Assembly: GCA_934090735.1 (NCBI GenBank)
Contig: CAKOJR010000005.1
Span: 4,524 to 68,523, forward strand
Reading direction: 5' to 3'
Length of the DNA: 64,000 nucleotides
From: an uncultured Bacilli bacterium
Lineage (GTDB): Bacteria > Bacillota_I > Bacilli_A > RF39 > UBA660
This document shows, piece after piece, positions 2,215-59,989 of this stretch. The translations under genes were made by a program, and so were the position numbers. Numbering within the stretch: the stretch's first letter is position 1; each line of letters begins with the position of its first letter. The notes under the pieces were generated by a model. That model did no database searches and was not told where the DNA came from. It was given only the letters and a program-made list of their open reading frames with translations.

Positions 2215-2452
2215 CTCCTACTTTCAAGGCATCATAAGCTCCACCTGCTGATAAAGCCCCTATCAAACACAAAACTATCGAGCGAAATAGAGTTGTTTCT
2301 ATTTCTGCAAAATAAACGATTACTCCAGAAACAACTCCAATAACTACATTTTGTAATGGAATATACTTCTTATCTACAATTTTCAATTTTTTACTAACAA
2401 AACCTATAATAAGTGTCACCAAAGAAATAACACTAAATGCAGTCAGTTCCAT
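2192..2452 (-). CDS. phage holin, A118/Hol118-like
   Basis: 86 aa counted from the ATG at 2452, which has an AGGGAG RBS. Two to three TM segments. KKxxIVDKKYIPLQNVVIGVVSG...GALSAGGAYD parallels Hol118 ([23 protein letters not shown]...GAGGTGLFE). Charged C-terminal tail. Confidence 0.6.
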   Translation of the reverse strand: MELTAFSVISLVTLIIGFVSKKLKIVDKKYIPLQNVVIGVVSGVIVYFAEIETTLFRSIVLCLIGALSAGGAYDALKVGGDKNKNE

Positions 2453-2648
2453 CTTTCTTTCTCCCTTCAAGCACACTTACTCTTTTATCAAGACTAGATG
2501 ACATTTTGGTTAATTCATCAACTTTATCAGTAAGTAGTTTAGTATTCATATTAAGCTTAGTAATTGATGTATTTAGTTTTAGTAAAGGTGTAATTATCGC
2601 TATAAGTGACACAACAAGACCAGCAATTTTAATAATTTGACTATCCAT
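2433..2648 (-). CDS. small TM plus coiled-coil protein of the lysis cassette (XhlA-like role is only a guess)
   Basis: 71 aa counted from the ATG at 2648 (RBS AGGTGAGG). One N-terminal TM followed by a coiled-coil-like stretch. Sits immediately upstream of the holin. Confidence 0.4.
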   Translation of the reverse strand: MDSQIIKIAGLVVSLIAIITPLLKLNTSITKLNMNTKLLTDKVDELTKMSSSLDKRVSVLEGRKKDGTDCI

Positions 2649-11249: not shown

Positions 11250-12188
11250 TTAACTCGGTACTATCAATCTTTGCCCAATACTCAAAACATTAGATTTTAA
11301 ACCATTTAAACTCTTAATCTCATCAACCGTACTATTAAACATTCTAGCTATACTCCAAAGAGAGTCTCCACTCTTTACTACATACACATTAGTTTCCTCA
11401 TTCTTCTTATTACTATAAGGTGGTATCTTTAAAGTCATGCCGATACTTAAATTATTAGAACTAAGATTATTCAAAGACTTAATCTCATCCACACTAACAT
11501 TAAACTTTCTTGCAATAGCCCATAGCGTGTCTCCAGCACTGACCACATAATCATTAGAAGGACCTTTTCCAACAATAAGTCTCTGTCCAACACTAAGAAC
11601 ATTACTACTCAAATTATTTAACGCCTTTAATTCATTAACAGATAAATTATATTTCCTAGCAATACTCCATAAAGTATCACCACTCTTTACAACATAATAA
11701 GTATCATTCCCATCATCGTCCGTGCTATCAGCACTGCTTATTAGTAAAGTATCACCCACATGTAATACATTACTACTTAGATTATTTAATGCTTTTAACT
11801 CATCAACGGTAAGACCATTTGCTCTCGCAATACTCCATAGTGAATCACCCTTTTTAACAACATAATAATTAGAACCGCTTACTGGAACATACTTATATCC
11901 TCCATACAAAGTAACTGCTCTTACCACAGCTTCAGCATATTTCTTATAATTACTCTTAAGCCTCTCAGCATCAGCTGCATTATCTAAAAACCCATACTCA
12001 ACTATCAATGTCTCATTATTAGGTGTATTACGAATTATATAATAATAGTCCTTAGAAGAATCACTAGGAAGCCTTCTCTGATAATACTTTCTAACTACCT
12101 GCCCACTCTTTTCAAGCTCATTTAAAATACTTGAAGCAAGCTTATCATTATTACGAAGAGCATATATTACTTCTGCACCCTCGCCACC
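11250..12188 (-). pseudogene. 3' part of a split N-acetylmuramoyl-L-alanine amidase gene (C-terminal half of Amidase_3 plus four LysM repeats)
   Basis: The frame of the 252-aa LysM ORF remains open upstream to about 12197. It encodes GGEGAEVIYALRNNDKLASSILNELEKSGQ...LIVEYGFLDNAADAE, followed by four repeats of the form YVVKxGDxLWSIAR...LSxG. Confidence 0.8.
12179..12188. repeat. island junction core (left junction on the plus strand)
   Basis: Plus strand CCTCGCCACC (minus strand GGTGGCGAGG). Matches 9 of 10 positions of the core at 30186..30195 and sits in the same codon phase of the amidase frame. Confidence 0.6.
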
Positions 12189-12199
12189 TCGGGAAAGAT

Positions 12200-12213
12200 T
12201 TTATGTGATTAGA
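12200..12213. repeat. 14-bp direct repeat TTTATGTGATTAGA (copy inside the island)
   Basis: Identical 14-mer at 30200..30213, which lies in the amidase coding sequence (SNHI codons). Confidence 0.7.
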
Positions 12214-12268
12214 CTATCATTTTTCCTTTATTTTACTGCGTTTCTATTTTTTCTAAAAATAGTATAGA

Positions 12269-12306
12269 GGATGGTAAGATTGTGTGATTACCAAATTTTA
12301 CCATCC
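12269..12306 (-). terminator. hairpin downstream of the recombinase gene
   Basis: GGATGGTAA ... TTACCATCC: a 9-bp stem with a 20-nt loop. T-rich sequence follows on the minus strand. Confidence 0.4.
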
Positions 12307-12318
12307 TATTTTTATTAT

Positions 12319-13944
12319 TTAATTTATTTCTTCATAATTAGTTTTTATATCATCTAGCACCTTAAATCTATATTGAATTTCTATATTTCTATCTTTATCA
12401 ATATAAATTTTTTTTACTAAAGTTTTTATGAGTTCTCTGTTAGGTTCATCTAAATTTAAAAGTGATTTTATTTGTTCTTCATATTTAGCTATTTCTTTTG
12501 TATCTTCTTTAATCTGATTTTCTTCATTATCTATTTCATAAATTCTATAATTTAAGGCTGATATTTGTTTTTCAGTTTGTGTAGAGATTCTTGTATAAGT
12601 ATCAACACTTATTATTCCATTAAATTTATCATCATATAAAGCATCAGATTTTCTTTTTAATTCATCAATCTCGCGTAATAACTGTTGCTTTTCTTTTTGT
12701 CTATCATTCTTTTCCTTTGTTCTATCTTGTAATACTTTTTCAGACAGCTCTTTAATATTTAAACTATCTAAATATTTTTGACAAGTAGTTTTAATAACAC
12801 TCATTATTTTTTCTTCCAACTTATCGTAAGGAAAAAAATGTGGATAACATAAATGTCTTCTTGGATCTCTTGCGTATTTATTACAATTAACACTCCAATA
12901 TTTTCCATCTTTATAGTTTTTATTTTTTCTATAAAGAACACTTAAGGAGTTGCCACATTCTTTGCATACAAGTAGATTTTCTAATAATCTTTTTTCTCTA
13001 TTGCAATGGGTTGTTCTTACTCTTGCAGGAGCATTTTGTATTGCTTCAAATACTATCTTGCTAACTAGAGGCTCATGTGTATCTTCAACTATTATCCAAA
13101 ACTCTTTTTCTAAAGCAACTTTCTTCTGAGATTTATAACTTAACTTAGTTTGAACATTTTGTACCATATCTCCTGTATACATTCTATTTTTCAATAATTT
13201 ATTTACTGAAGATATTGTCCATACATTCACTTTTCGTCTTGAAGATGATTTAGTATTTTTATACATACTAGGACTTAATATCTTATTATCATTTAGGTAT
13301 GATACAATATCACTTACTCCAATTCCAGAATGAGCCATTTTAAATATCTTTTTAACAACAGGAGCAACTTCGGGATCAGGTATTAAATGTCCTTTATCAA
13401 GTGGATCTCTCATATAACCATAGCATGGCTTACTACCTATAAATTTACCTTGTTCTTTTTTATTTTTTAGTATTGAACGAATCTTCTTAGAAGTATCTTT
13501 ACTAGTCATATCATTAAACAAAGCTTTAAATGGAGCAATATCATTATTAGCACTTTCTAAAAATGTATCAACTTGATCTAATATAGAAATATATCTAATT
13601 TTCTTTTGTGGAAAATATTGTTCTACATAATATCCACATTGTATATAATCTCTACCTAATCTTGATAAGTCTTTCGTGATTACACAATTGATTCGACCAC
13701 TTTCAATATCCTTTAATAATCTTTGAAAAGAAGGTCTATCAAAGTTAGTTCCTGTAAATCCGTCATCTACATACTCATCAACCAAAGTAAATCCACTCAT
13801 TTTTACATAATCCATCAATAAATTTCTTTGATTGATTATACTTTCACTCTCTGACTCATAAGTTTTATCTTCATCACTTTCTGATAATCTGATATATAAA
13901 CCTACTCTATAAAAACTTGGTGCTTGTATTATATTGTTATACAC
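12319..13944 (-). CDS. large serine recombinase (integrase)
   Basis: 541 aa. N-terminal resolvase catalytic domain (VGLYIRLSESDED..., IINQRNLL, DDGFTGTNFDRPSFQRLL, KDLSRLGRD). Recombinase domain, a Zn-ribbon (CKECGNSL...CNKY) and a C-terminal coiled coil. Confidence 0.9.
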   Translation of the reverse strand: MYNNIIQAPSFYRVGLYIRLSESDEDKTYESESESIINQRNLLMDYVKMSGFTLVDEYVDDGFTGTNFDRPSFQRLLKDIESGRINCVITKDLSRLGRDYIQCGYYVEQYFPQKKIRYISILDQVDTFLESANNDIAPFKALFNDMTSKDTSKKIRSILKNKKEQGKFIGSKPCYGYMRDPLDKGHLIPDPEVAPVVKKIFKMAHSGIGVSDIVSYLNDNKILSPSMYKNTKSSSRRKVNVWTISSVNKLLKNRMYTGDMVQNVQTKLSYKSQKKVALEKEFWIIVEDTHEPLVSKIVFEAIQNAPARVRTTHCNREKRLLENLLVCKECGNSLSVLYRKNKNYKDGKYWSVNCNKYARDPRRHLCYPHFFPYDKLEEKIMSVIKTTCQKYLDSLNIKELSEKVLQDRTKEKNDRQKEKQQLLREIDELKRKSDALYDDKFNGIISVDTYTRISTQTEKQISALNYRIYEIDNEENQIKEDTKEIAKYEEQIKSLLNLDEPNRELIKTLVKKIYIDKDRNIEIQYRFKVLDDIKTNYEEIN

Positions 13945-14220
13945 TTACTACTCCTTCCAACGTGTATAACTTCAATAAGCAATATCATTATATCACAAAC
14001 TTTTACTGCTTACTATTTTCTAACATCAATTTTAAGTACTCCTCTATTAAGTCAACCAAGTTTTTATCTTTATCGAAAGTTTCAGTTATATTCACTAATC
14101 TACACCTCTCCTTTCATTTTATGAAATAAGAACGACTATAAGACTTTATTATCAAAATTAGGGCATAAAAAAATTAGTTATATTTCAAACTAATCTAGTA
14201 ATAGAAACTATTATATTCCT

Positions 14221-14766
14221 TTAATCCATTTCGTTTCGCTTAACATTTTGGAGTTCTAATTTATAAAATTCTAATATTTTTAGATAATCTTTACGGAAAT
14301 AGTTTTCGCTTAACCATTTAACACCTTCTTTAGAAATTATTACTTTACCATCTTTTAAATACTTAAATGATTGATTATTTCTTTTTTCCATCCTATTAAC
14401 TGCAACGCCAATAGCATTTTTACTCTTATTAAAATAACTTTTTAAATCATATAATGATATATCTTTATATTCAAATTCATTATGAGGAAAATTCAGTTCG
14501 TCTTCTAATTTTAATATTTGTTTTCTAAAGAAATTTATTTCAGCATCCAAATAAAATAGATTGTTGTTGAAATAAACTTCTTCTATCCACTCTACAAATT
14601 CTAATTTTAGATATACTACTCTTTCACCATTTTGAGCAAAATGTTCATCAATCCATCTCTCATTAGGATGTCTTCTTTTTAATCTTTTCACTAATCTCTT
14701 ATACTGTTTTTCGCTAATTTTAAACTTCTGTAAAACACGCCACTTCTCCATTGACTTAAATTCCAT
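14221..14766 (-). CDS. hypothetical basic protein; candidate DNA-binding or recombination directionality factor
   Basis: 181 aa, K/R-rich (KRLVKRLKRRHP). AAAGGAGA RBS. Sits directly upstream of the recombinase gene in the same orientation. No domain recognised. Confidence 0.4.
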   Translation of the reverse strand: MEFKSMEKWRVLQKFKISEKQYKRLVKRLKRRHPNERWIDEHFAQNGERVVYLKLEFVEWIEEVYFNNNLFYLDAEINFFRKQILKLEDELNFPHNEFEYKDISLYDLKSYFNKSKNAIGVAVNRMEKRNNQSFKYLKDGKVIISKEGVKWLSENYFRKDYLKILEFYKLELQNVKRNEMD

Positions 14767-15084
14767 ATTTCTCCTTTCATTTCATACCAAATTTCAGATT
14801 ACCATTAAATCCTATTTTGAGGTTACATACCCGTGTAATACAATATATCAAGCATGGTGTATACACACCCATCTAGCTTGTTAGGGAATATCCCTAAAAC
14901 CCACTAATAGTCTCCGACAGTTTAGAAATTTTTTAATCAAATTTTCATTTAATATTTCAACTATTTCATAAAATTCATTATCAATTTTTAAAAATATAAC
15001 TCACCCTCTTTCTTTGATGAAAATAAAAATGGACATGAAAAAAGAGAGATAAAAAATCCCTCAATTAGTCCTTCTTTATAACTA

Positions 15085-15125
15085 TCCTATATTACCATAA
15101 TACCACAAAATAATAGGAATTGCAA
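15085..15125 (-). promoter_or_regulatory. sigma-A-like promoter unit A with flanking inverted repeat TCCTAT-N22-ATAGGA
   Basis: Minus strand TTGCAA-17 nt-TATTAT (15125..15097). The inverted repeat arms at 15085..15090 and 15113..15118 bracket the -10 element. Confidence 0.4.
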
Positions 15126-15230
15126 TGGCACGATTTTCGTCAAATGCTTCACTATCCGTTATAAAATAAGGGTTTGTAAAAGAAAAAATAATTTGCAAAA
15201 ATACAAATTATTTCTATCATCTTACAACTT

Positions 15231-15271
15231 TCCTATATTATCATTTTAGCACAAAATCATAGGACAGTCAA
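15231..15271 (-). promoter_or_regulatory. sigma-A-like promoter unit B, paralogous to unit A
   Basis: Minus strand TTGACT-17 nt-TAAAAT (15271..15243). The same TCCTAT-N22-ATAGGA geometry occurs at 15231..15236 and 15259..15264. Roughly 70 percent identical to unit A over about 50 nt (aligned by eye). Confidence 0.4.
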
Positions 15272-15329
15272 CGGACATGATGCAATATTAACCTTCTTTT
15301 CCTGAAATTCTATTGAATTTATATATTAT

Positions 15330-18300
15330 TTAATGCACTCTAAATTCATCAATTAATACACCTGCAATTTCATTATCATGAGCTATCAATATACATAAAA
15401 TATCTTCATAAGACTTAATTAATTCTTCATCTAATTTTATTTTATCGCTATATTTTGTAAATGATTTAATAATTATCATATTAATAATAATATCTACATC
15501 ACCTTTTAATTCTTTTTCTAGAATATTATAGTTACTATTGTTGTAAGATAAGATTTCTTTTACACTAATTAAAATTTCAGGTAGTAATTCATCAACATTC
15601 AGTAAATATAAAGATTTAATAGCATCTCTTATATAATAAATTCCGTACTTTGAAAACTGCCTGTTTAAAAACATTTTATCTTCATAGCTATAACTTGTTT
15701 TTATCTCCGAAGGATTCCACTTACAATCTCTTGATGCATTAAAGAAAAGACATTTATATAATTGCTTTTTTACTTTTTCATTTTTAATATTAACAATTCT
15801 TTTTTCAACTTCTGATATCTTCTTTTTACAGATATTTCTCCTAGAAGCATTATTATAAGAATCATAAAATTCAGCAATAAAACCACCCATAATTTTCTGA
15901 TAAAATTCTATTGCTTCCTCTTGAAATATTTCAAAATTAATATCTTTAAACAAAAAATCAATCACATTTTCATTATATTCTAATGTGTAAATTAATTCTT
16001 TTTGTATAAAAGAAACTAATTCAAATTCACTATATGTATCAATGATTTCATAATATAGCCTATCTTCTTTACAAGAGTCATATATATTTATCATGCATTT
16101 CAACAATTCTTTTAGAATTTTTTCAAAAGATTTGTTACTTAAAGTCATTCCACAATTAACAATTTTAAATAGTAATTGTATATCATAATCATCAATATTG
16201 AACTGATCTAAATTTAATTTTTTTTCATCAAACAAATAATCTTGTATAACTTGTTCTTTTAAGCTTTCATACTTTTTTTCGCTATTTTCTTCAAGTTGAT
16301 AGTCCACACCAGAAAGCCTTGGCACAAAATTAGGCTTAAATACAAATCCAGACTCTTTAACGTACGTAGCATTATATTTTTGATGATTCATTTCGTCTTC
16401 TGAAAGTTTGATGATAGTATTAAATATAATTCTAGATAAGTTAGAATTACCTAACAGATACTGAGATATTTTTAATTGTATTTGTTTAATAATACCATCA
16501 TGTGTATCATTTATAATGCATTTCAAAATTATTTTTTTAATTTTATTTTTTATTTCATCACTTGTATCTTCATATAATTGATCTAATAAAATATTAATTA
16601 ATTGTGGTTCAAAAATAAAAACTTCGTTTTCAAATATTTTTTCCAGTCCAGTAATCCAGAAATCACAAAAATTATTTCTTTCTAATGTAGATAATTTTTC
16701 TTCTTTTAGGGCTATGGAGATAAAACATATTAAGATGGATTCATATCCACTAGTTCTATCACTATTGCTATTTATAATACCATTTAATTCTTCAATACAA
16801 TTTAGGAGCTTATCTCTATAGTTTTTTCCTCTTTGTCTATCTCTAATATAATTATCAATTTTATTTTCTAATTCAACATAAATTTCATTTTGTTTTTCAT
16901 GTGAATCTGTCACTTTTTTTGCTTCACCAGTAATTTTAGTTTCAATCATTGACGTATTTTTATCAACTTCAGTTATTACGGCATTTCGCATATCCATTTT
17001 TTGTATTTGAAGATAATTAGTTGCATTATCCTCAGTATTAGTAATAATAGTATATAAATAATCCAAAATTTTAAAAACCCGTTTTTGAAAATCAACACCA
17101 AAACTAATTTGCAAACTTATAGCATAATTTTCAATATGGATTGCACATTTTTTATCTAATTGATATCTATATTTTATTTCTGGCAATCCAATTTTTAATA
17201 ATAATTGTTTTTCTAGCATTTGTAATTGAGGATTATTTAAATATAAGGAATATCTATGAGTATCCCAATTTATAATATCAATACTCGTAACTAAATCTAA
17301 GGCATATCCAGGAAACTCATTTTGAAAATGTAGTCCTATATTCTCTATTACTGTCAATAAAATTACATTATTTGACTTTGAATAAATTTTATTTTTAATA
17401 TTTAATAGTATCTTTTCAACATTTTCTTTATCAGATAAATTTTGCTGAATAAAATTAATTATGGAATCTTTAATATAAAATACAATATCACTTAATAAAT
17501 CAGGAACATATCCGTCCCTTGTACCAGCCAGCCACATATTATTATTTCCATAATATTGCTTAATTTCATTTGTATCAACAAATTTTATTTTTACTTTAAG
17601 AACATTGTCGGGTGAGTTTTCTGCATAAGCGTCAACAGAATTATTTATAAAATCAATTGCCCAATCTAATCCAATATAAAAGTTTACTCTAAAAAGATTC
17701 CACAACAAAACATTTTTATTTGGTGTTTGAAATGAATACTTATAATCTTCACATAATCCATAATCATTCTCGACATTACTATGATAATAAAATTCATTAT
17801 TTGAGTTTTTTTTAATCCACAGAGTATTAGCAATGAAACACATTTCATGTGGCAATTCTTTAACAAGATTATAGTGTGCATTTTCTGAAATCCATTGTAA
17901 TATTTCTTCCGACATTCTCTGATTTTTTTTACTTTTGCTGTTATAACTCTCTAATAATTTAGTGAAAAAATTCTTTAACCATTCAGAACAAGTTTCTGAA
18001 AGTTTGAAAAGTACAACAAGATATTTATCAATATATTCAATGACATTGAACCGCTCTTTATCGACTTTTTGGAAAACTTCATCAACAAAAAATTCTAAGA
18101 TTGAACAAACAAGTATATCAATTTCTTTTAACCTGTTATTGTTTTGATTTGTATAGTCTAAACAAAGTTTTGCAACTTTAGACTCATTAATAGTATTTTT
18201 TAAATATAACTTTTCTTGAGCAATTATTTTTATTATATTTTTACGACTTCCACCAGTTGGAATCAATATAACTTTTGGAAATTCATTATTAAAATCAACT

Positions 18301-20081: not shown

Positions 20082-20216
20082 CCTAACAACTTATTTAATA
20101 ATATAGAAAAAATTTTTTAATTTTGATTTATCACTAAAGATTTAGTATTTACTTTTTCTAGCCTTTTTTACAAAGGATATCTCGAATATAAAATCTATAC
20201 CATTTTTTATAAAAAT

Positions 20217-22871: not shown

Positions 22872-24612
22872 AAAATTCATCCTCCATATCATTGGAAATA
22901 TCATTTACAACATTTAGATTATAATTATTTACATTAAAAACACATTTATTTAATAACATCTCTGGTATTTTTTTTATCATTATATTTTTGTACTTATTTA
23001 ACAGTTCTTCATCATAAGCAGTACACGCAATAACAAGATACTCTTCAGGAAGCATAGAACCCTTTATTTTTTCTAGTGTCATTGAATTTAAAAATTGAGT
23101 TGTTACATATAAATAACTATTTTCATTTCCTATTGATTGTTTCCAAAAAATCTCTTTATCAGGATTGTATTCAAAACCTTCATGGAGTGCAACTGATCTT
23201 GCTAGCATTTCTGGATTGTAGTTTTTATTAATAACCATTTCCCCAAAAGAATCTTCATTTATTAAAGTTGGTGCAAGTTCATAAAAATTGTAACCTCCTC
23301 CACCATTCCAATTAACAATCGAGGTAATTCCACCATTATCTTTTCCATCAATGATTAAATTTAATCTTTTTATACAATGCGTATATACATGTTCACCCAT
23401 CTCAATTCCTATCCAATTTCTATTCATTTTATGGGCAACCGCTGCTGTAGTACCACTACCTAAAAATGAGTCTAAAACATAATCTCCTTCATTTGTACTC
23501 ATTTCTATTATCCTGTTTAACAATAATTCTGGTTTTTTACCATTAGGAAATTCTACTTGACCTTCTTTTGTTAAATTATTAAGATTTATTCCATCCCATA
23601 AAGTTCCTTGTAAGTCTTTCTTTAACCATTTTCCATCTTTATATTCCGTTACATCTTTTAGCCAAGTAAGTAATCTAAATTTATCGCCTTTATAGAATTG
23701 CTCATATTCATTTCCTTTGTTTTTACCAGTCTTAGGAATATATTTGATGCTAATTACATCTGAATGTTTAATGCCTTCTAATCTTTCCATTACTCTTGGT
23801 CTAATTGAAGATTGTGGCATTGCAGTTGTATGAATTCGATCCATATACTTATAATATACTTCATTTTCTGAAATATTTTCTTGCTTTGCAATTTGAGATA
23901 TTGACATAAATTTTGCATTTGGACGATTATATATTTTAATTTCATTTCCATCGCCATCTACTGTTGATGCTAGATATTCAGGGTCTCCTTTTTCATATAA
24001 TACCGACGTATATTTCCAGCTAATACCTTCATCTTTATATTTTTTTACCAATTCACATATTTCTGTATACGCATATGCATTTTGTAGCCATTTAAAATTA
24101 TCATATTTTTTAGTATATGTAAGGATAAATTCAATATTCTTTTTTAATCTTTTATCTTCTCCTCCACCACTTGCACCTGCAATATTCTTCATTTTAACTG
24201 TTATAGTATTCAAATAATTATTTCTACCAAAAATTTCATCACATAATACTTTCAAATATGCATATTCATTATCATCAATTTGAATAAATATTATACCATC
24301 CTCTCTCAATAATCTCTGCAAAATAACTAAACGTTCCTTCATTAGGTTTAGCCAAATACTATGTTCTAGATTATCATTATAATGTTCAAATGCACTTCCA
24401 GTATTATATGGAGGATCTATATAAATACATTTTATCCTTTCTGAATAATTCTTTTCTAATGCTTTCAACGCTAAAAGATTGTCCCCATGAATGAGAATAT
24501 TTCGAGAATTTTTATCACCATAACTTCTTTCATCATCCTTAATCAATATTCTAGGTTCTACCTTTTCTTCATTGTTTTTTCCTATCCATGTTAATTCTAA
24601 TTTACCTTTCAT
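22864..24612 (-). CDS. mod: type III restriction-modification system, DNA methyltransferase (Mod) subunit
   Basis: Beta-class motif order: IYIDPPYNTG (motif IV) near the N-terminus and VLDSFLGSGTTAAVA (motif I) near the C-terminus. Overlaps the res start. The start is either the ATG at 24612 or the GTG at 24624. Confidence 0.9.
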   Translation of the reverse strand: MKGKLELTWIGKNNEEKVEPRILIKDDERSYGDKNSRNILIHGDNLLALKALEKNYSERIKCIYIDPPYNTGSAFEHYNDNLEHSIWLNLMKERLVILQRLLREDGIIFIQIDDNEYAYLKVLCDEIFGRNNYLNTITVKMKNIAGASGGGEDKRLKKNIEFILTYTKKYDNFKWLQNAYAYTEICELVKKYKDEGISWKYTSVLYEKGDPEYLASTVDGDGNEIKIYNRPNAKFMSISQIAKQENISENEVYYKYMDRIHTTAMPQSSIRPRVMERLEGIKHSDVISIKYIPKTGKNKGNEYEQFYKGDKFRLLTWLKDVTEYKDGKWLKKDLQGTLWDGINLNNLTKEGQVEFPNGKKPELLLNRIIEMSTNEGDYVLDSFLGSGTTAAVAHKMNRNWIGIEMGEHVYTHCIKRLNLIIDGKDNGGITSIVNWNGGGGYNFYELAPTLINEDSFGEMVINKNYNPEMLARSVALHEGFEYNPDKEIFWKQSIGNENSYLYVTTQFLNSMTLEKIKGSMLPEEYLVIACTAYDEELLNKYKNIMIKKIPEMLLNKCVFNVNNYNLNVVNDISNDMEDEFYE

Positions 24613-24753
24613 AATATACACCACACTTATAATTTCTCTTCTAATCTTAAATACTTATTTTTATCTAATTAAAAATTTTTTAAATTACAATTTTTTGGAT
24701 AATTGCTAATATTAATTATACTATAAAAACTGGCAAAAATCGACTTTTTATGA

Positions 24754-25779
24754 TTAATTAGTATCAATTATTGTTTTTCTTAATTCTTCTTCTAAAGAAT
24801 GCGATAATTGTATTAAATATTGTTCATTAAAATCAATATCAGTTCGATTTGACATCTTTTTTTCAATAAGATCAAATATTTCATTTCTATCTTTTTGAAT
24901 AGCAATTCTATCAAAAATTAATCCAGCCCATGAATTATCAAAATAATGGCAGCCCATAAATATTAATTTTAAATTTTTATCATTTGTTGCAAAGAAAACT
25001 TCTTTATCTGAAAAATGGTATTGAAAATTATTGATTGATGACAAATAAGAGATATCCCAAGCCTGATTTTTACATCCTCTAATAATTTTTTCAAAATCTT
25101 TACTTTTAATATTTTTTGGTGCCTTAATAGTCGAATAGTTAGTGAATAATAAAATTGCATAGGTAATATCATACATAGATAATTTTAAATTATCATAATA
25201 CCAATCAAGATACTTTAAAATTTTGTTTTTTGTAGATAATTTAGTTAAAAAAACCTCTGCAATTTTTAAAACCGAACAATAACTAAGTAAATATGTAATA
25301 CTTTTATTTTTATAATTTGCATGGCGGTGAAATTTTACTGATATATCAAATTTTTGTAATTTATAGTTCCCATTTTTTAAATGATTTAAAAAAACTAAAC
25401 TTGGAATTTCAGATAGATAAGTCAACAACTCATTTAATTGCCTAATGACTTCTGAATTTTCTGTTAAATCTCCATATTCATTCATTGCCAATCCAATATT
25501 ATATTGTAATCCATTACAATTACAAAACATCAAAAATGATAGTAGCATTATCATATTATCTTCTTCTTTTAATTCACCATTTTTAAGATAATCAAACAAC
25601 ATTGAAGTTATATTTCTATCTAGTACAATAATTTTGTCTTTCTTATTCATCAAATATTCTTTGTAATGAGTAAATTTTCCTTCCATAGCATAATAAGGAT
25701 GAAAAATAATTTGAAAAGAATTAACTAAATCAAATATATCATTTAAATCATTATCCTCTAAAATAATCAAATCGTTCAT
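24754..25779 (-). CDS. hypothetical protein (possible PIN-like nuclease; weak inference)
   Basis: 341 aa from the ATG at 25779 (GAGGTGA RBS). Acidic motifs IIVLDRNI, AWDISYL and FFATNDKNL loosely resemble PIN-domain signatures. No confident domain. Confidence 0.45.
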   Translation of the reverse strand: MNDLIILEDNDLNDIFDLVNSFQIIFHPYYAMEGKFTHYKEYLMNKKDKIIVLDRNITSMLFDYLKNGELKEEDNMIMLLSFLMFCNCNGLQYNIGLAMNEYGDLTENSEVIRQLNELLTYLSEIPSLVFLNHLKNGNYKLQKFDISVKFHRHANYKNKSITYLLSYCSVLKIAEVFLTKLSTKNKILKYLDWYYDNLKLSMYDITYAILLFTNYSTIKAPKNIKSKDFEKIIRGCKNQAWDISYLSSINNFQYHFSDKEVFFATNDKNLKLIFMGCHYFDNSWAGLIFDRIAIQKDRNEIFDLIEKKMSNRTDIDFNEQYLIQLSHSLEEELRKTIIDTN

Positions 25780-25960
25780 ACAAATCACCTCAAAACATTA
25801 GCATAGCTATTCTTATAATAATTAAACAGTTAATTATATTATACCATGTCTATATGGTTTTATCGTCTTTATCTATTTGTTTTAATAATTGATTTTAAAT
25901 AATTTATTATGAATTAAAAACCGTATTCGGAAATCCACATACCCGTAATGGTGCACTGGA

Positions 25961-26257
25961 TTAATTTTCATATGGTTTTTCATAAATTATATATTCATAA
26001 TCAAATCTGCCATTTTCATCTCTAGTTTCAATAACTTTTAAATATTTATTAACTTTTAATTCATTTAATATTTTTCTAATAGTATCTCTACTTTCAACAC
26101 AAATACTTGATAATCCTAATATAGAATAGTCCCAATTATCTGGTAATGATAACATTAAAGATAATAAACCCTTTGCCTTTAAACTTAATCTTCTATCCTT
26201 CAAATGATAATTTCCCATAACTATATATCCTTCTTCTCTATTTGATTTTATTTTCAT
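25961..26257 (-). CDS. small winged-helix DNA-binding protein of the type common on Firmicutes mobile elements
   Basis: 98 aa. The pattern LSLKAKGLLSLMLSLPDNWDYSILGLSSI...RDTIRKILNELKVNKYL...GRFDYEYIIYEKP matches the widespread HTH family found on plasmids and phages. Confidence 0.55.
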   Translation of the reverse strand: MKIKSNREEGYIVMGNYHLKDRRLSLKAKGLLSLMLSLPDNWDYSILGLSSICVESRDTIRKILNELKVNKYLKVIETRDENGRFDYEYIIYEKPYEN

Positions 26258-26284
26258 ATTCTCATATCCTTTCTTTTCTCAAAA

Positions 26285-26310
26285 TAAAAAAGCCTATATA
26301 AATAGACTTT
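26285..26310 (-). terminator. rho-independent terminator after the rnlB-like gene
   Basis: Minus strand AAGTCTAT-ttata-ATAGGCTT (one mismatch) followed by TTTTTT. Confidence 0.5.
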
Positions 26311-26335
26311 ACGCTCAACAAACAATTTCATAAAT

Positions 26336-26689
26336 CTAATTGTTTAATACATAATTTATTGTTGATTTTGTTAATGTACCATTATTTAATATATCAACAT
26401 GTTCTTTTAAATATTGTTTAACAGTTTTTTTACTTGATTCTGATACATCATTTGGATTTATGATTATACTATTATAGCTTCCTTCTTCAAAGTTTAATAA
26501 TACATACCTATTAAATGAATATCCATTTCGCAAAAACAAATCTACAATAACAGAGAATTTATTTCCTTGAGTTTTTGAAAGTTCATTGTATATATCTTCA
26601 GTAAAAAAATATAAGTCATCAATATTGTTCAAAAAAATATAATTTTTATTTATATCCTCTTCAAAATTAAAAATTTCATAATCGTTCAT
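26336..26689 (-). CDS. rnlB: RnlB-like antitoxin
   Basis: 117 aa (E. coli RnlB is 123 aa), immediately downstream of the RnlA-like gene with an AAGGAGA RBS. VIVDLFLRNGYSFNRYVLLNFEEG parallels RnlB ILFDLLCANGPEWNRFVTLEMKYG. Confidence 0.6.
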   Translation of the reverse strand: MNDYEIFNFEEDINKNYIFLNNIDDLYFFTEDIYNELSKTQGNKFSVIVDLFLRNGYSFNRYVLLNFEEGSYNSIIINPNDVSESSKKTVKQYLKEHVDILNNGTLTKSTINYVLNN

Positions 26690-26701
26690 AAATATTCTCC
26701 T

Positions 26702-27748
26702 TTATTTATAAAAAACATTATAAGATTTTTCAATATTTTCAATAATTTCATCAACTATTTCTTTTGCTTCTTGCCAATTTTCAATTATTCTTGTTTGTGA
26801 TGGTTCAATTGTTGCATGCAAGAACACATTTCTCTTATTTGAATATATTTTATTTAATTTTATTAAATATTCTTTTTCATCATTACTTATTAATTTATCA
26901 TTTTCAATTTTACTTGAATTTCCTCTATCTTTATAAAACATTGAAAATTTATTTTTTTTATCAATCTTATATGAATACTTATTCACTAATACTTTTGTTA
27001 AGTAACCTTCTAATGTTTTAAATGCACCTGTAACACAACAAGTATAATCCTCACTTTCTTTTATTGTTTTAAGTGATGTGATTGATCCTGAAAGAGATTT
27101 TATCAATGCTTCATCTAAAAAAGTATATGAATTTGATAAATTTGCTTTAATTGTTTCTCTTATATCAGCTGTTGAAATTTTTGTTGTTGTAAACATGTTG
27201 TTTATTTCTATAATACTATCAAGAGATACAGAAGATAATTGAGATAATAAGGTCATTATTATACCAAAAGTTTTAAAAGGTCTACCTTGAATCATAACTT
27301 TATTAGTTTGAGGGTAAAATGTTATATCAATATGATCTTTATTATACCCAATAAAACGAATTCTATTATTACTATAATATTTAATTTGAATTTCAGAAGA
27401 AAACTCATCTTCAACACATTTAATAAGTTCTTCAATTGTTTCTTTATTACATGAAAACACTGTTTGTTTGGGTTGAGCACTATCAATAGGATAACCTAAT
27501 TCAGCTAAATATTTTATCAATTTATTAGATTCTTCAGCATTTTTTCCAATAGGCATCATTTTTACAGACATCTTTTTAACCTTAACATAGAATTTAACTT
27601 TACATTGTTTTCCTGATATAAAAAAGTTGCATGTATATTCTTCTTTACCTTGAACTTTAATATAATTACTAAATACAAAATCAATATTTTTTTTAGAATA
27701 ATCTTTGATATAAGTTTCTATATCATCTGGATTTATATATACTTCCAT
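26702..27748 (-). CDS. rnlA: RnlA-family HEPN endoribonuclease toxin
   Basis: 348 aa (E. coli RnlA is 357 aa). QTNKVMIQGRPFKTF parallels RnlA TTGKLQIQGRPLSCY. AFKTLEGYLTKVL parallels ELRTIEGVLKSKM. A C-terminal HEPN Rx4H motif is present (KRNVFLH versus ERHSLFH). Confidence 0.8.
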   Translation of the reverse strand: MEVYINPDDIETYIKDYSKKNIDFVFSNYIKVQGKEEYTCNFFISGKQCKVKFYVKVKKMSVKMMPIGKNAEESNKLIKYLAELGYPIDSAQPKQTVFSCNKETIEELIKCVEDEFSSEIQIKYYSNNRIRFIGYNKDHIDITFYPQTNKVMIQGRPFKTFGIIMTLLSQLSSVSLDSIIEINNMFTTTKISTADIRETIKANLSNSYTFLDEALIKSLSGSITSLKTIKESEDYTCCVTGAFKTLEGYLTKVLVNKYSYKIDKKNKFSMFYKDRGNSSKIENDKLISNDEKEYLIKLNKIYSNKRNVFLHATIEPSQTRIIENWQEAKEIVDEIIENIEKSYNVFYK

Positions 27749-27750
27749 TA

Positions 27751-29064
27751 CTACTTCACTCCTTCAACACAAATTGCTTCTGTTTTTTCATTATCATTTA
27801 TTATTACTTTATATTTGACTCTTTTACCCTTTTGTAATAATTGTTTATTGCCAATAACACTACGCATATTAAAATATATATTATCTTCATTATTATCTTG
27901 CTTTATAAATCCCGAATGCCCATTTTTCAATATATTATCTATTTTACCAAATAAATATTCATTATCATTTTGTTCAATATATTCTCTTGCTATAGATTTT
28001 AATTGATACATATTTGGTTTTTTGGTAACATCTAAATCATATTCAGATATATAATATTGTAATTCCTCTGATAAATTCCAACCCATTAAATTTCTAAAGT
28101 AAGCACATGCATGATAATATTTTATAGCATTATCATTTTTACCCTGCGATTCCCAACATAATCCCAAGTTATATAATAAAGTTACTTTTGTTTCATCAAT
28201 TAATTCATTATAAATAGCTTTGCAATTATACAGTAAACTCTCTTTAAACTTCCCAAAACTATAGCAAATATTTGCAAGTTTATGCCATAAAAACCAGTAA
28301 TTTTCTTTTTCAGCAAATGTTTTATAATTTTGAAAATCAATTTCTCTATTACTAGAAATCATACATTTTGAATATAATATTCTACCTGTAATCCAAATTT
28401 TATTCTTATAATGAAACTTTTTAATTATTTTTAATGCTTCTTCACCAATTAAAATACATTTTTCATATTGTCCTATTTTTTCATATGACTTAACCATGTT
28501 TTGATAATAAAATTCCTTGGATGATGCTTGTTCAAATTCGCCTTCTCCTATTTTTGTTGTAAAACATTCTTCAGATAATATTGTTGGATTAAGTTTCTCT
28601 AACCATTGGACTATTTTTTCTTGATTACTTCTGGATGTTCGTGAAGATAGCTTATTATTATATACTTTTACAACTTTTTTGATAGTTAAAACATATGGTG
28701 TAAGAATTTCATTAGTTGCTTCTCTTTGCACAGAGTGATTAATTATTATTTCTGCCATTTTTATAAACTCTTCAAAGTTAGATTCCTCAGTATCTATATA
28801 ATTTTTAATATAAACATCATATACACACCAACATAAAACTGATATTACATAATTACTTTTTCTTATATATGAATCTTTTGGTATTTTAGAAAACTCATTT
28901 AAAAAAATATCTGATTTATTACATTTACGTAATGAATTACCATACTCTGCAAAAAGGTTATGATCATCCTTATTCGACGAATTCCATAATTTATCATATA
29001 TCAATAATGCTTTTTCAAAGTCTTTATTATTATAAAATTCTTTTGCTTGATTCCTTTCATTCAT
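27751..29064 (-). CDS. TPR-like repeat protein with C-terminal cold-shock (CSD/OB) domain
   Basis: 437 aa. The body is TPR-like and helical. The last ~65 aa, GKIDNILKNGHSGFIKQDNNEDNIYFNMRSV...KGKRVKYKVI...AICVE, parallel CspA-type [31 protein letters not shown]...EGQKVEFEI. The stop lies 2 nt before the rnlA-like ATG, and the GAAGGAG RBS for that gene sits in its own last codons. Confidence 0.65.
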   Translation of the reverse strand: MNERNQAKEFYNNKDFEKALLIYDKLWNSSNKDDHNLFAEYGNSLRKCNKSDIFLNEFSKIPKDSYIRKSNYVISVLCWCVYDVYIKNYIDTEESNFEEFIKMAEIIINHSVQREATNEILTPYVLTIKKVVKVYNNKLSSRTSRSNQEKIVQWLEKLNPTILSEECFTTKIGEGEFEQASSKEFYYQNMVKSYEKIGQYEKCILIGEEALKIIKKFHYKNKIWITGRILYSKCMISSNREIDFQNYKTFAEKENYWFLWHKLANICYSFGKFKESLLYNCKAIYNELIDETKVTLLYNLGLCWESQGKNDNAIKYYHACAYFRNLMGWNLSEELQYYISEYDLDVTKKPNMYQLKSIAREYIEQNDNEYLFGKIDNILKNGHSGFIKQDNNEDNIYFNMRSVIGNKQLLQKGKRVKYKVIINDNEKTEAICVEGVK

Positions 29065-29156
29065 AATATCAGTCCCTCACACAAATTAATATAATTATAA
29101 CATATATATTGCAAATTTTATTTTTTTTGCAAAAAATACATATTAAAATTTTAATT

Positions 29157-30068
29157 TTACAATTCTTTAGGACAATTAGGTTTATAATTAACATCATTAA
29201 ATCCATAAATCTTTTTACAATCATTACAAACTATTGCAATAAAATATAAACCATTAATATTGTGTCCTTCACCTTTTTCTATAACTATATTATCTCCTTT
29301 ACATACAGGGCAATATTTATAATCTTTTTGACTACATGCATCTCTAACTATTTCATAACCATTATGAAAATCGTATTTGGGTATAAATTCACCAGTATCA
29401 ACACTTTTAATTCTTCCAAACATAAACTCTAACTTATCCACAGTTTTTTCTAAATGATAATGTCCACAATACCATTTATTATAATTTACTTTTTGATCTA
29501 CGTCATTTAGAAAATACTCCATAGATTTATCTACTGCAATTTGTGGCAAACTTAATTTAAAACTTTCTTTTGGTTCATATCTTAACGGACAAGTATGAGA
29601 TAGAATTATATCAACGTATTTTCCAGAATACTTATCCAATATATCTATTCTTTCTTGTTCAGTTAATTGTTCATCTTTAAACCACGGATATCCTTTACTT
29701 ATTCTATAGTCTTTATCAATAGAATAAGCACCACCTATCACTAAAATACTTTTGCCATCAATATTATAAAGTTCTCCATTTTTAGCAAATATTAAGTTAG
29801 GATATTCATCTTCTATAAATACTTTACCGCCAAACATTTCTACTTCACGATAACTAGAAATATTTTCTGGTCTTTCTTCATGATTTCCTTGAATACAGAA
29901 AAATTTGAAATTATATCTTTTTAATCTTTCCTTTAATTTTTTATCATATTCATCCAAATAATAATTAATACCCACATCACCTAAAATAATCATAATATCT
30001 TCATCATTTAATCCTAAATGACCGAATCTATAAAAATCTCCATGAGTATCACCAGTTATATATAACAT
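29157..30068 (-). CDS. calcineurin-like metallophosphoesterase with C-terminal Cys4 zinc-ribbon
   Basis: Motifs ITGDTHGD, IILGDVG, QGNHE, LSHTCP and CGHYH. C-terminal CPVCKGDN...CNDCKK. Start taken at the ATG at 30068 (AGAGGTGA RBS). Confidence 0.8.
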   Translation of the reverse strand: MLYITGDTHGDFYRFGHLGLNDEDIMIILGDVGINYYLDEYDKKLKERLKRYNFKFFCIQGNHEERPENISSYREVEMFGGKVFIEDEYPNLIFAKNGELYNIDGKSILVIGGAYSIDKDYRISKGYPWFKDEQLTEQERIDILDKYSGKYVDIILSHTCPLRYEPKESFKLSLPQIAVDKSMEYFLNDVDQKVNYNKWYCGHYHLEKTVDKLEFMFGRIKSVDTGEFIPKYDFHNGYEIVRDACSQKDYKYCPVCKGDNIVIEKGEGHNINGLYFIAIVCNDCKKIYGFNDVNYKPNCPKEL

Positions 30069-30185
30069 TTTTTCACCTCTCATCTTTAAAGTATTTTGAT
30101 ATATCTATTATACCATTATATCCAGTAAAATAAGAAGCTTATTAAAGTTATACACTATGCCTATAATTAACCACATATTACGCGT

Positions 30186-30195
30186 CCTCGCCTCC
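30186..30195. repeat. island junction core (right junction on the plus strand)
   Basis: Plus strand CCTCGCCTCC (minus strand GGAGGCGAGG). Partner of the core at 12179..12188. Confidence 0.6.
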
Positions 30196-30199
30196 TGCA

Positions 30200-30213
30200 T
30201 TTATGTGATTAGA
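30200..30213. repeat. 14-bp direct repeat TTTATGTGATTAGA (copy in the amidase coding sequence)
   Basis: Identical to 12200..12213. Confidence 0.7.
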
Positions 30214-30626
30214 TATTACCACAACACCCTTACCATCACCAAACTTATCTAAAACCACTCCAGGTCTATCATTCGGTTCCAAATCCACATCACTAGTTCT
30301 CGTCATTTTTACCGGTACTCCAAGTTCTTTAAACCTATCATACATATACTGACTTATCTTTAAAGTTAGCTCCTTCTCAATTATTCCATTTCCAGAAGAG
30401 CCTTGATCATTTCCACCATGTCCACTATCCAAAACTACCCCTTTTAAAGCCATATTAAATCACCTAATCTATTTTATTCGTTTATTAAAAATTAGGTTCT
30501 TATTATGTGTCAATGATTTTCTCCCCATCACTATTTATTATAAAAACAAAAGCAGTACAACCTCTACTGCTTTTGTAAATACAACAAAAAATATGCAAAC
30601 AATCATAAAAATGATATAATTAAATA

Positions 30627-54420: not shown

Positions 54421-54532
54421 GAAATCACCCTCTTTACAATAAACATTTTACCATATTATCGTATTTTTAACAAGAAACATTGAAGTTAACACGTCAAATA
54501 TGATATAATATTTAAAATAAATGGAGGCTCAT

Positions 54533-55325: not shown

Positions 55326-55377
55326 AAAGACCTTAATTTAAAGTAAACCACAATAATTCACAATTAAGGTCTTTTTT

Positions 55378-56379: not shown

Positions 56380-56442
56380 ATTCACCCTCAAAAGAAGAAA
56401 CTATTATATAATAGAAAAGCTATAAAAGTAAATACTTACAAA

Positions 56443-59951: not shown

Positions 59952-59989
59952 TAAAAAACTCGGGTAGCCGTATGCAAGAACTACCCGAG
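59952..59989 (-). terminator. rho-independent terminator of the DGR operon
   Basis: Minus strand CTCGGGTAG-13 nt-CTACCCGAG followed by TTTTTT. The left arm includes the RT stop codon. Confidence 0.7.

Follow-up and report, generated by a model that had tools for sequence, protein, structure and literature searches.

In Listeria prophages of the A118 / φ10403S type, a serine integrase inserts a full prophage into a coding gene, comK, which can then be switched by reversible excision. This 'active lysogeny' is triggered inside host cells. SCC elements use two recombinases and carry mainly resistance genes; their integration at the 3' end of rlmH (orfX) is not known to inactivate that gene. SCCmec and the enterococcal cassette chromosome (CcrAB) are chromosomal cassettes with variable cargo and a serine-recombinase module; they have no transfer genes of their own, occupy a single fixed site in the chromosome and pass from one species to another (PMC6222049). 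Relaxase-less 'iOriT' islands consist of an integrase and cargo that includes defence genes, lack relaxase and mating-pair genes, and form families found in different species (bioRxiv 10.64898/2026.01.13.699239). SPβ in spsM and skin in sigK, an active and a defective prophage, have a serine recombinase at the edge of the gene-splitting element. Precise excision rebuilds their targets, which are proven mother-cell genes, and in SPβ and C. difficile skin small, sporulation-controlled directionality factors drive it (PMC4191935, PMC5499854, PMC5025042). The gin element in gerE of Bacillus cereus ATCC 10987 is 28.6 kb long and has three recombinases; its GirX factor and sporulation-specific excision are proven (PMC5595907).

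The window, the whole 64,000-nt stretch of DNA that was analysed, contains a gene for an Amidase_3 domain with four LysM repeats that is split in two by an island of 18,004 bp (12187..30190). The island is most probably one copy of a family of small (about 6.5-18 kb) horizontally mobile integrative islands, each with a dedicated large serine recombinase. Like gin, it is a non-phage island of lower G+C (24.6% vs about 29% in the flanks) with a restriction-modification system, lies inside a coding sequence, has a large serine recombinase (GirC in gin), and is predicted to restore the ORF on excision. It differs from gin in its single recombinase, amidase target, uncultured RF39 hosts, clear spread between species and swappable cargo. 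An edge recombinase and predicted gene rebuilding by precise excision are shared with SPβ and skin, which, unlike this island, are prophages. Variable cargo, a fixed site, interspecies spread and the lack of transfer genes recall SCCmec, and the best NCBIfam match of the recombinase is CcrB (3e-28, far below its cutoff), but here a single recombinase disrupts its target gene and the cargo is defensive. The insertion within a coding gene resembles that of the A118 / φ10403S elements, although those are full prophages. The defence genes, occurrence in different species and integrase-plus-cargo layout without relaxase or mating-pair genes are also those of iOriT islands; a conserved block with a hairpin and GTGTGT-ATAC could be an origin of transfer, but in this island the oriT reading is a sequence resemblance to pMV158 only.

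The two gene fragments and the island ends are as follows.
30178..30453, minus strand: amidase N-terminal fragment, a 91-aa ORF whose first 88 residues equal residues 1-88 of P0001, an uninterrupted metagenomic allele
11250..12186, minus strand: amidase C-terminal fragment, residues 89-399, with the remainder of Amidase_3 and four LysM
30161..30222, minus strand: attL, with host B arm …TCTAATCACATAAATGCAGGA, GG at 30192-30191 and island P' arm CGAGGACGCGTAATATGTGGTTAAT…
12157..12218, minus strand: attR, with island P arm …TCTAATCACATAAAATCTTTCCCGA, GG at 12188-12187 and host B' arm TGGCGAGGGTGCAGAAGTAATATATGC…

An earlier note, made from the sequence alone, had described the 91-aa ORF correctly. 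It comprises 88 native codons followed by E-D-A-stop from island DNA, and contains the Amidase_3 metal-ligand motifs GHGG, E and NHIN. The conserved VEYGF glutamate is on the C-terminal fragment, whose frame is open to ~12197, as had also been stated, and which has neither a start codon nor a promoter of its own. Since the conserved motifs are divided between two pieces, the interrupted hydrolase should be inactive. The amidase has no signal peptide, and its Amidase_3 domain begins at residue 6 (Pfam).

The in-frame join suggested earlier (1197 nt, 398 aa) does read through four LysM repeats and aligns colinearly with Pfam Amidase_3 over profile positions 1-173 of 174 (E=4.5e-29), but its register is 3 nt off. 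The two 10-mers proposed as the junction core are present and 9/10 identical because the island arm CGAGGACG resembles the host arm TGGCGAGGGTG at a 3-nt offset. When the empty sites L001-L004 were aligned to both junctions, only GAGG (minus strand, 30194..30191 and 12190..12187) was common to attB, and we infer that crossover takes place at its GG dinucleotide. Joining 30453..30191 to 12186..11250 gives 1200 nt and 399 aa, reading …NAGGGEGAEV…. This protein is 100% identical to P0001, and the 6 nucleotide differences between the joined sequence and the L001 gene all fall in the first 54 nt. Natural uninterrupted alleles likewise have 399 aa, not 398, with three Gly in this stretch, and >100 further intact alleles were found at 94-96% identity. 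For three of the intact alleles (L002-L004), which were read from end to end, the neighbours on either side are the same sortase and LytR-CpsA-Psr / YfhO genes. Precise excision would thus restore the 399-aa gene exactly, as had been predicted apart from the length.

The attL assignment is based on the alignment to the empty sites, and its P' arm is kept in L014 and L019. The attR junction is the same in about 30 loci. Recurrence of the same junction in independent assemblies of at least 20 species is not chance. The central proposal of one gene split by a serine-recombinase island is supported. The arms of attP are symmetric about the GG at 13/30 positions, with a motif equidistant on both sides. 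Two patterns for the attP junction of an excised circle found no match in IMG/VR or JGI metagenome contigs, a result of little weight, since circles that are rare fail to assemble.

Outside the cargo, the island contains the following features.
12319..13944, minus strand: large serine recombinase, 541 aa (Pfam; phrog_95 integrase)
14003..14095, minus strand: conserved micro-ORF of 30 codons, VNITETFDKDKNLVDLIEEYLKLMLENSKQ, just upstream of the recombinase gene
14221..14766, minus strand: p181, a backbone protein restricted to the present element family
14815..14934, minus strand: conserved non-coding block, hairpin TTAGGGA-TAT-TCCCTAA, then …GGGTGTGTATACACC…
15044..15129, minus strand: promoter-like site TTGCAA-17-TG-TATTAT and terminator-like hairpin (15125..15097, 15062..15044)
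25961..26257, minus strand: HTH_36 protein, 98 aa (Pfam; PHROGs replication-initiator families)

The recombinase gene ends 130 bp from the junction, as noted earlier, and its ORF is intact and strongly conserved. It encodes Resolvase, Recombinase and Zn_ribbon_recom domains with a YIRLS motif at residues 17-21, and is <=34% identical to any recombinase in phage or plasmid collections. The micro-ORF has a strong Shine-Dalgarno, and its peptide is kept in L005, L020, L021, L022 and L027. p181 adjoins the recombinase in most relatives but is absent or truncated in several; of its 100 homologues, one has a Pfam domain. Its AlphaFold2 model (mean pLDDT 92) contains winged-helix-like modules, and fold matches were local HTH and excisionase-like only, none significant. 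p181 is a candidate regulator or directionality factor. The non-coding block is 80-100% identical across the family, and two base pairs of its hairpin are changed on both sides with pairing kept. It is a candidate operator or origin of transfer, the latter from a short similarity to the pMV158 oriT nick region, TGTG/TTATAC (PMC5863519). The promoter-like site lies upstream of the p181 / micro-ORF / recombinase module and is kept in relatives with different cargo. The 98-aa HTH_36 protein looks like the N-terminal part of a 252-aa HTH_36 / replication-initiator-like backbone gene, versions of which occur in L008 and L031, with partial to full matches in >12 relatives.

The cargo consists of defence genes (Pfam, PADLOC), which agrees with the earlier description.
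29157..30083, minus strand: calcineurin-like metallophosphoesterase, 308 aa (Pfam Metallophos; phrog_1649)
27751..29064, minus strand: TPR plus cold-shock-domain protein, 437 aa (Pfam TPR, CSD; PADLOC PDLC01170, E=2e-35), a candidate defence gene
26702..27748, minus strand: RnlA-like toxin, 348 aa (Pfam RnlA-toxin_DBD, RnlA_toxin)
26336..26689, minus strand: RnlB-like antitoxin, 117 aa (Pfam RnlB_antitoxin)
24754..25788, minus strand: 344-aa protein with no Pfam, PADLOC, PHROGs or NCBIfam match
22864..24624, minus strand: Type III restriction-modification mod, 586 aa (Pfam N6_N4_Mtase; PADLOC MTase_III, 1.5e-144)
20217..22904, minus strand: Type III restriction-modification res, 895 aa (Pfam ResIII; PADLOC REase_III, 6e-125)
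15330..20081, minus strand: Avs4-like SMEK-domain STAND NTPase, 1583 aa (Pfam SMEK_N; PADLOC Avs4, 1e-32; NCBIfam Avs4, 3e-48, below its cutoff)

No phage structural, relaxase, conjugation or type IV secretion domains were found in the island with Pfam and PHROGs; the lack of phage structural and conjugation genes had been reported before. Going inwards from attL, the metallophosphoesterase gene comes first, and only by analogy with Bxb1 gp47 (PMC11795197) is its product a candidate directionality factor. It is 90% identical in L014, and the annotation of L008 has a Metallophos gene at its edge, but L019 and L031, both complete islands, contain no match to it.

Relatives of the recombinase (62-98% identity) were found in 24 GTDB species-representative genomes, including RF39-order gut Bacilli, and in further metagenome contigs. 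At every locus but one, a 1.8-kb contig that ends within the recombinase gene, an amidase fragment starting at residue 77-88 lies downstream of the recombinase. The distance is ~50-130 bp, except that two cargo genes intervene in one distant relative. In L012, L013, L015, L018 and L026 the recombinase is 96-98% identical to that of the window while the host amidase fragments reach just 57-69% identity. Copies of the Avs4 and Type III restriction genes, 97-99% identical, turn up again in L006, L015, L017, L018 and L036; cargo differs in other relatives, and the smallest members have the recombinase and a restriction system only. The presence of the same cargo, at 97-99% identity, in hosts with such divergent amidases (57-69%) shows, on these comparisons, that the family is a mobile element actively spreading between species.

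We propose that the recombinase would recognize an attP of ~50 bp in the island, with AAYCACATA motifs 14-22 nt either side of the central GG, and an attB in the part of a signal-peptide-less Amidase_3-LysM peptidoglycan hydrolase gene that codes for the conserved S-N-H-I-N-A-G-G-G-E-G-A-E-V. As the sequence shows, integration at GG leaves the 91-aa stub and the promoterless, startless C-terminal piece. The conserved backbone comprises the HTH_36 protein, hairpin block, p181, 30-aa micro-ORF and recombinase, and a variable cargo slot holds anti-phage systems, here the Avs4-like NTPase, Type III restriction-modification, RnlAB, TPR-CSD protein and phosphoesterase. The same recombinase with a putative directionality factor would recreate the 399-aa gene, and cell-to-cell transfer would need a helper, possibly via the oriT-like block. 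The lack of a match to the attP junction (weakly), the absence of the metallophosphoesterase from L019 and L031 and the loss or truncation of p181 in several relatives count against the mobile-island reading.

A developmental intervening element of the skin, SPβ or gin type is unlikely, though it is the best of the alternatives. The island would be kept in the germ line and cut out in the terminal mother cell alone, in the course of sporulation, when the recombinase and a sporulation-expressed factor would rebuild the amidase, a mother-cell lysin like B. subtilis CwlC, just when needed. As for SPβ, this is compatible with mobility too. The island interrupts coding sequence without bringing a substitute end for the gene. 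This amidase has no signal peptide, and CwlC is not known to have one. The motif AC-N16-CATAGNNTA, which we take from the B. subtilis consensus to be a σK-type -35/-10 pair, immediately precedes the amidase gene in L019, L031 and L034, all three other species in which that region is visible. Its background rate is 4.2e-5 per nt, and under a stricter definition 1.1 Mb contains it nowhere but at these three positions. In the window species, the corresponding position has AC-N17-AATAAAATA. AC is the σK -35 element, and mother-cell lysis is carried out by σK-controlled amidases (PMC3789822). However, the motif ends just 15-20 nt before the ATG, so that transcription would start on or inside the Shine-Dalgarno, which makes the promoter reading doubtful. 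The two named hosts belong to order RF39 (PMC8035907), which is predicted to be spore-forming and walled (PMC10868615), and a SleB/CwlJ-type Hydrolase_2 gene lies ~4 kb from the amidase in L005. No sporulation gene was found within the 64-kb window, however, and no directionality factor with a σE or σK promoter. The C-terminal frame is open and full length in every occupied locus readable to its stop, but recent insertion explains this equally well because horizontal spread is clear. L014 has lost the first ~11 amidase codons and the upstream region, and the metagenome searches yielded no excision product. The σK-like motif, the missing signal peptide and the RF39 prediction are weak hints that make sporulation-coupled excision possible.

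The decayed N-fragment of L014 and the missing attP junction would also fit a fixed remnant that no longer excises, with a dispensable autolysin permanently knocked out; an intact paralogue beside the interrupted copy in L035 suggests redundancy. We consider such a dead end improbable. The recombinase ORF, att arms, backbone non-coding blocks and C-fragments are all conserved or intact, near-identical islands occur in divergent hosts, and the insertion is polymorphic within the species, with many intact alleles.

There is similarly little to recommend a degenerate prophage or a phage satellite that relies on a helper phage for packaging and movement. In favour of this reading, serine integrases are common in phages, the phosphoesterase has a match in the phage family phrog_1649, and the HTH_36 protein is similar to replication initiators of phages. 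Against this, Pfam and PHROGs revealed no capsid, terminase, portal, tail, primase or packaging-redirection genes, the 2.9 million IMG/VR contigs contained no relatives, and the smallest members are as minimal as described above.

Finally, an erroneous joining of island and gene halves during assembly or binning, for which only the metagenomic origin of the sources speaks, can be dismissed, as the same two junctions occur in many independent assemblies from different assemblers, among them a 21.6-kb stretch 99.995% identical to the window.

The island at 12187..30190, which carries the 541-aa large serine recombinase, is a real and well-delimited element. It is one member of a previously undescribed family of large-serine-recombinase islands that carry swappable defence cargo and are dedicated to a single codon of an Amidase_3-LysM autolysin gene. 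The hosts of this family are RF39 and related gut Bacilli. The interrupted gene is present as two pieces:

30178..30453, minus strand: N-terminal stub, a 91-aa ORF ending …SNHINAGGEDA and a stop codon
about 12197 down to 11250, minus strand: open frame of the C-terminal fragment, …GGEGAEVIYALRNN…LIVEYGFLDN…, then four LysM repeats

The earlier note had read these from the sequence as two halves of one gene, and that observation stands, since both frames are present and join in frame. The joined ORF is colinear with the Pfam Amidase_3 profile over positions 1-173 of 174 (E=4.5e-29) and contains LysM 4 times. Searching with the joined protein recovered a 399-aa uninterrupted metagenomic allele (P0001) that is 100% identical and >100 other full-length proteins with 94-96% identity. 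The empty site that the note predicted was found in three loci (L002-L004), where the intact gene is flanked just as its halves are in the window, by class B sortase, DUF92 and AbgT genes on one side and LytR-CpsA-Psr and YfhO-sulfatase genes on the other. In a fourth locus with an intact gene, the short contig L001, the sortase side is visible. The proposed 398-aa product had to be lengthened by one residue. Natural alleles carry one more Gly codon than the original join, and …NAGGGEGAEV… was present in 4/4 intact alleles read (P0001, P0002, P0067, P0072). Joining at GG gives a gene of 1200 nt and 399 aa whose protein is identical to P0001, while its DNA has 6 differences from the L001 gene, all in the first 54 nt. 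Since the corrected join equals P0001, precise excision is predicted to give an intact 399-aa ORF.

Junctions were mapped by aligning the empty site to both ends of the island. The N-side tracks attB up to …GCAGGAGG and the C-side does so from GAGGTGGCGAGG… onwards, therefore the common core is GAGG, which occupies minus-strand positions 30194..30191 and 12190..12187. A 10-bp core had been suggested earlier, but GAGG is all that the junctions and attB have in common. The 9/10 match reflects a likeness between the island arm CGAGGACG and the host arm TGGCGAGGG when the two are shifted by 3 nt. attL (30161..30222) and attR (12157..12218) are attB-attP hybrids with a very short common core, and empty attB is present in L001-L004. 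The insert is 18,004 bp with a G+C content of 24.6%, compared with 28.7% and 29.4% for the flanks.

The rebuilt attP, GATAGTCTAATCACATAAAATCTTTCCCGA-GG-CGAGGACGCGTAATATGTGGTTAATTATAG, is an imperfect inverted repeat with AAYCACATA at -22..-14 and +14..+22 about GG. Its arms are symmetric at 13/30 positions, and those of attB at 8/30. The host B arm has the TCTAATCACATAAA motif too, 4 nt nearer the centre, which is reflected in a 26-nt overlap of the BLAST flank alignments. GG is constant across relatives while the preceding bases vary (GA, GG, CA), which points to GG as the crossover dinucleotide. The predicted junction sequences are CACATAAATGCAGGAGGTGGCGAGGGTGCAGAAG for attB and AAAATCTTTCCCGAGGCGAGGACGCGTAATATG for attP.

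The recombinase domains PF00239, PF07508 and PF13408 are colinear over residues 16-384 (Pfam), and YIRLS occurs at residues 17-21, its serine being the presumed nucleophile. Among the matches listed, the best 120 proteins are 81-98% identical to the recombinase. In the metagenome contigs with a relative (L005-L011, L036 and L037), an amidase fragment starting at residue 77-88 lies within ~100-130 bp after the recombinase gene. The GTDB species representatives (L012-L035, 62-98% identity) have such an amidase fragment after the recombinase in 23/24 cases; the exception, L032, is a 1.8-kb contig ending inside the recombinase gene. Two cargo genes lie between recombinase and junction in L034, whose recombinase is a 66% relative. 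A 21.6-kb stretch of L036 matches the window at 99.995% identity. Where both junctions are visible, the islands measure ~11.4 kb (L014), ~6.9 kb (L019), ~9.7 kb (L031) and ~6.5 kb (L034).

The nearest phage and plasmid recombinases in the collections searched, TndX among them, are ≤34% identical, and no relatives were found in viral contigs (IMG/VR). Named hosts of relatives are Candidatus Faecimonas (G+C 28.2%, 1.4 Mb) and 'Acholeplasma sp. CAG:878'. The former (GTDB CAG-877) is classified in order RF39, family CAG-611, and the latter, genus CAG-878, in order RF39, family CAG-822 (PMC8035907). The G+C content of the window, 27.9%, fits the RF39 group. By type, the island can be grouped with the serine-recombinase cassettes and gene-intervening elements already known; a literature search turned up no paper tying gene-intervening elements to an amidase target.

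The window cargo consists of an Avs4-like SMEK-STAND NTPase, Type III mod and res, RnlA and RnlB, a TPR-cold-shock-domain protein (PADLOC PDLC01170), a 344-aa protein and a phage-type metallophosphoesterase. Several anti-phage systems are clustered here, as identified by PADLOC (Avs4, REase_III, MTase_III, TPR-CSD) and Pfam (RnlA, RnlB). Cargo elsewhere in the family includes DUF3644, a D12 methylase, ParB-like proteins, an SNF2 protein and a PIN protein (L005), a RecD-like helicase and an NgoPII restriction system (L008), methylases and a 599-aa protein only (L019), and a Fic-like protein and others (L034). No capsid, terminase, tail or packaging genes were found in the island using Pfam and PHROGs, and no relaxase or type IV secretion domains using Pfam, PHROGs and NCBIfam. 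An exact look-up of the window phosphoesterase protein returned no record.

Recombinase and amidase fragment were compared with those of the window in five species representatives.

Identity to the window of the recombinase and the amidase fragment at the same locus
L012: recombinase 98%, amidase fragment 59%
L013: recombinase 98%, amidase fragment 64%
L015: recombinase 98%, amidase fragment 57%
L026: recombinase 98%, amidase fragment 66%
L018: recombinase 96%, amidase fragment 69%

Genes for the Avs4-like protein and for Type III restriction occur at 97-99% identity in L006, L015, L017, L018 and L036, so the whole island has moved between species in recent times.

A backbone is kept regardless of cargo. 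It comprises the recombinase, the spacer upstream of it, the protein p181 (14221..14766, minus strand), ~350 bp upstream of p181 and an HTH_36 gene. Three smaller features accompany p181:

14003..14095, minus strand: 30-codon micro-ORF VNITETFDKDKNLVDLIEEYLKLMLENSKQ with a strong Shine-Dalgarno, between p181 and the recombinase gene
14815..14934, minus strand: non-coding block, 80-100% conserved, with homologous blocks in L005-L030
15129..15044, minus strand: promoter-like site, then a terminator-like hairpin, within the ~350 bp upstream of p181

The spacer is 276 bp and 79-98% identical among relatives, and the 30-codon peptide is kept in L005, L020, L021, L022 and L027. p181 has 100 homologues, 1 with a Pfam domain, and all those whose context was read lie inside the island family. 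The protein itself matched nothing in Pfam, PHROGs, PADLOC or NCBIfam. AlphaFold2 models it with confidence (mean pLDDT 92); Foldseek searches of PDB and BFVD gave no significant match, the similarity being local, winged-helix and excisionase-like only. The HTH_36 or replication-initiator-like gene encodes 252 aa in L008 and L031 and is truncated to 98 aa in the window.

The non-coding block is more conserved than the adjoining genes. It contains the 7-bp hairpin TTAGGGA-TAT-TCCCTAA, in which two pairs are kept via two-sided changes (G-C to A-U in four sequences, A-U to C-G in one), then …GGGTGTGTATACACC…, including GTGTGTATAC. The oriT of pMV158 consists of a hairpin and the nick region …ATAGTGTG/TTATAC (PMC5863519). 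The island block resembles this layout in sequence; its candidate roles are those of an oriT or of an operator.

The directionality factor of Bxb1, gp47, is a calcineurin-like phosphoesterase (PMC11795197). By analogy, the 308-aa island phosphoesterase (29157..30083, minus strand), the first gene after attL, is a candidate for this role. It lies beside attL in the window and L014, and the edge of L008 has an annotated Metallophos gene; no match was found in L019 or L031, although both islands are complete. This patchy distribution weakens the idea. Further candidates are p181 and the 30-aa micro-ORF.

A long-loop hairpin follows the recombinase gene at 12230..12318 (minus strand) and is kept in L005 and L008. 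Pairing is kept through sequence changes (AGGATGGTAA…TTACCATCCT in the window, GGGAAGGA…TCCTTCCC in L008), and the loop has a second AATCACACAA motif, as in the attP arm. This hairpin could serve as a terminator, as an accessory binding site, or as both.

The C-terminal amidase fragment sits behind a conserved hairpin 3' of the recombinase gene. It retains the conserved VEYGF glutamate and the LysM repeats and is without start codon or promoter, while the stub retains the GHGG, E and NHIN motifs. Going by Amidase_3 structures, the stub motifs include the zinc ligands and the VEYGF glutamate is catalytic. Because these motifs are on separate pieces, neither piece should be active alone. In occupied loci the C-terminal frame is full length and open, 249-450 aa past the junction, wherever it can be read to the stop; in two short contigs (L011, L037) the stop is beyond the contig end. 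In L014 (1..350) the N-terminal fragment lacks the first ~11 codons together with the upstream region, has upstream stop codons, and reads stop-PPHGG in place of IDAGHGG. Either the split gene has decayed there, or a second insertion has hit GHGG. In L035 (7227..8794) an intact full-length Amidase_3 paralogue comes directly after the interrupted amidase, which suggests that the hydrolase is redundant in some hosts. A chromosomal Phage_holin_5_2 holin-like gene adjoins an NlpC/P60 hydrolase gene in the window (1459..2476, minus strand), ~9 kb from the amidase. The pair is also found in the island-free L002-L004 and may bear on the exit of wall hydrolases that have no signal peptide.

A mobile defence island could also be a developmental element of the skin/SPβ/gin type. 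We consider this compatible with the family described here and rather unlikely. The architecture matches these elements, in that a gene is interrupted and precise excision is predicted to restore its ORF. Of the known elements, gin in gerE of B. cereus comes nearest: it is an island of non-phage type that carries restriction-modification genes and a serine recombinase (PMC5595907). Several observations hint at a tie to sporulation. The amidase has no signal peptide, and CwlC, a σK-dependent mother-cell lysin, is not known to have one either. Mother-cell lysis is carried out by σK-dependent amidases (PMC3789822), and a wall and spore formation are predicted (PMC10868615) for the host order RF39 (PMC8035907). 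A hydrolase of SleB/CwlJ type is encoded close to the amidase in L005, and AC-N16-CATAGNNTA is found upstream of the amidase in 3/3 other species with the upstream region visible. Judged by the B. subtilis consensus, this motif is a σK-like -35/-10 pair. The background expectation is 0.0025 per 60 nt, and a stricter form of the motif turned up nowhere in 1.1 Mb but at those three sites; in the window species the corresponding place reads AC-N17-AATAAAATA. Published data give AC as the σK -35 (PMC3789822), confirming the -35 part only.

However, only 15-20 nt separate the end of the σK-like motif from the ATG, which would place the transcription start on or within the Shine-Dalgarno. The 64-kb window was found to have no sporulation genes, and the analysis identified no directionality factor. 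The excised circle was sought with a strict attP pattern and with a degenerate one spanning two clades, with 0 matches in IMG/VR and JGI metagenome contigs. The intact fragments can merely reflect young insertions, because of the L014 decay and the strong horizontal spread. The NCBIfam CwlD model scored the amidase far below its cutoff, and a sigma-70 promoter scan around the amidase start was not above the shuffled background of this 28% G+C DNA. The P' arm has a σE-like ATA-N16-CATAGTGT ahead of the phosphoesterase gene, which was taken as chance because it is not conserved, CATA being CGCA in L014 and TGCA in L019.

Somewhat less probable again is a fuller version in which the island is both spreading defence cassette and developmental switch. 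Its seat would be the gene for a CwlC-like mother-cell lysin in spore-forming RF39 gut bacteria. Excision in the mother cell would restore that gene, and a relaxase-less oriT would let the island pass between species. If this were true, the lysin would be needed only in a cell without descendants, so carrying the island would cost nothing, and the skin/SPβ/gin principle would extend to a new target gene, an uncultured order and a modular defence-island family.

As a family of recombinase-borne defence islands, these elements provide a landing pad and a minimal vehicle for swapping anti-phage systems among RF39 gut bacteria, which are uncultured and genome-reduced. Since a single integrase targets DNA encoding a conserved catalytic motif, many species offer it the same site. 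A new large serine recombinase with predicted attB and attP could become a tool for genome engineering and RF39 genetics, and the backbone contributes new parts in p181, the 30-aa peptide and the hairpin block. An autolysin switched off reversibly by integration would be a candidate mobile-element-controlled gene switch, possibly tied to sporulation.

Elsewhere in the window, an Rfam scan found one tRNA-Glu gene and nothing else. A five-ORF run spans 50751..56391. The four largest ORFs (592, 532, 181 and 337 aa) had no match in Pfam or NCBIfam, the 592-, 532- and 337-aa ORFs none in PADLOC, and the 98-aa ORF none in Pfam. A diversity-generating retroelement occupies 59981..63791 (minus strand). 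Its reverse transcriptase lies at 59981..61090 (Pfam RVT_1; PADLOC RT 2e-28), and small ORFs at 61091..61438 and 61431..61850 are in the usual place of accessory (Avd-like) genes. The 118-nt template repeat (62034..62151) and the variable repeat (62498..62615) have 86% identity, with 16/17 mismatches at template adenines, and the variable repeat falls at residues ~393-432 of a 452-aa target ORF (62433..63791).
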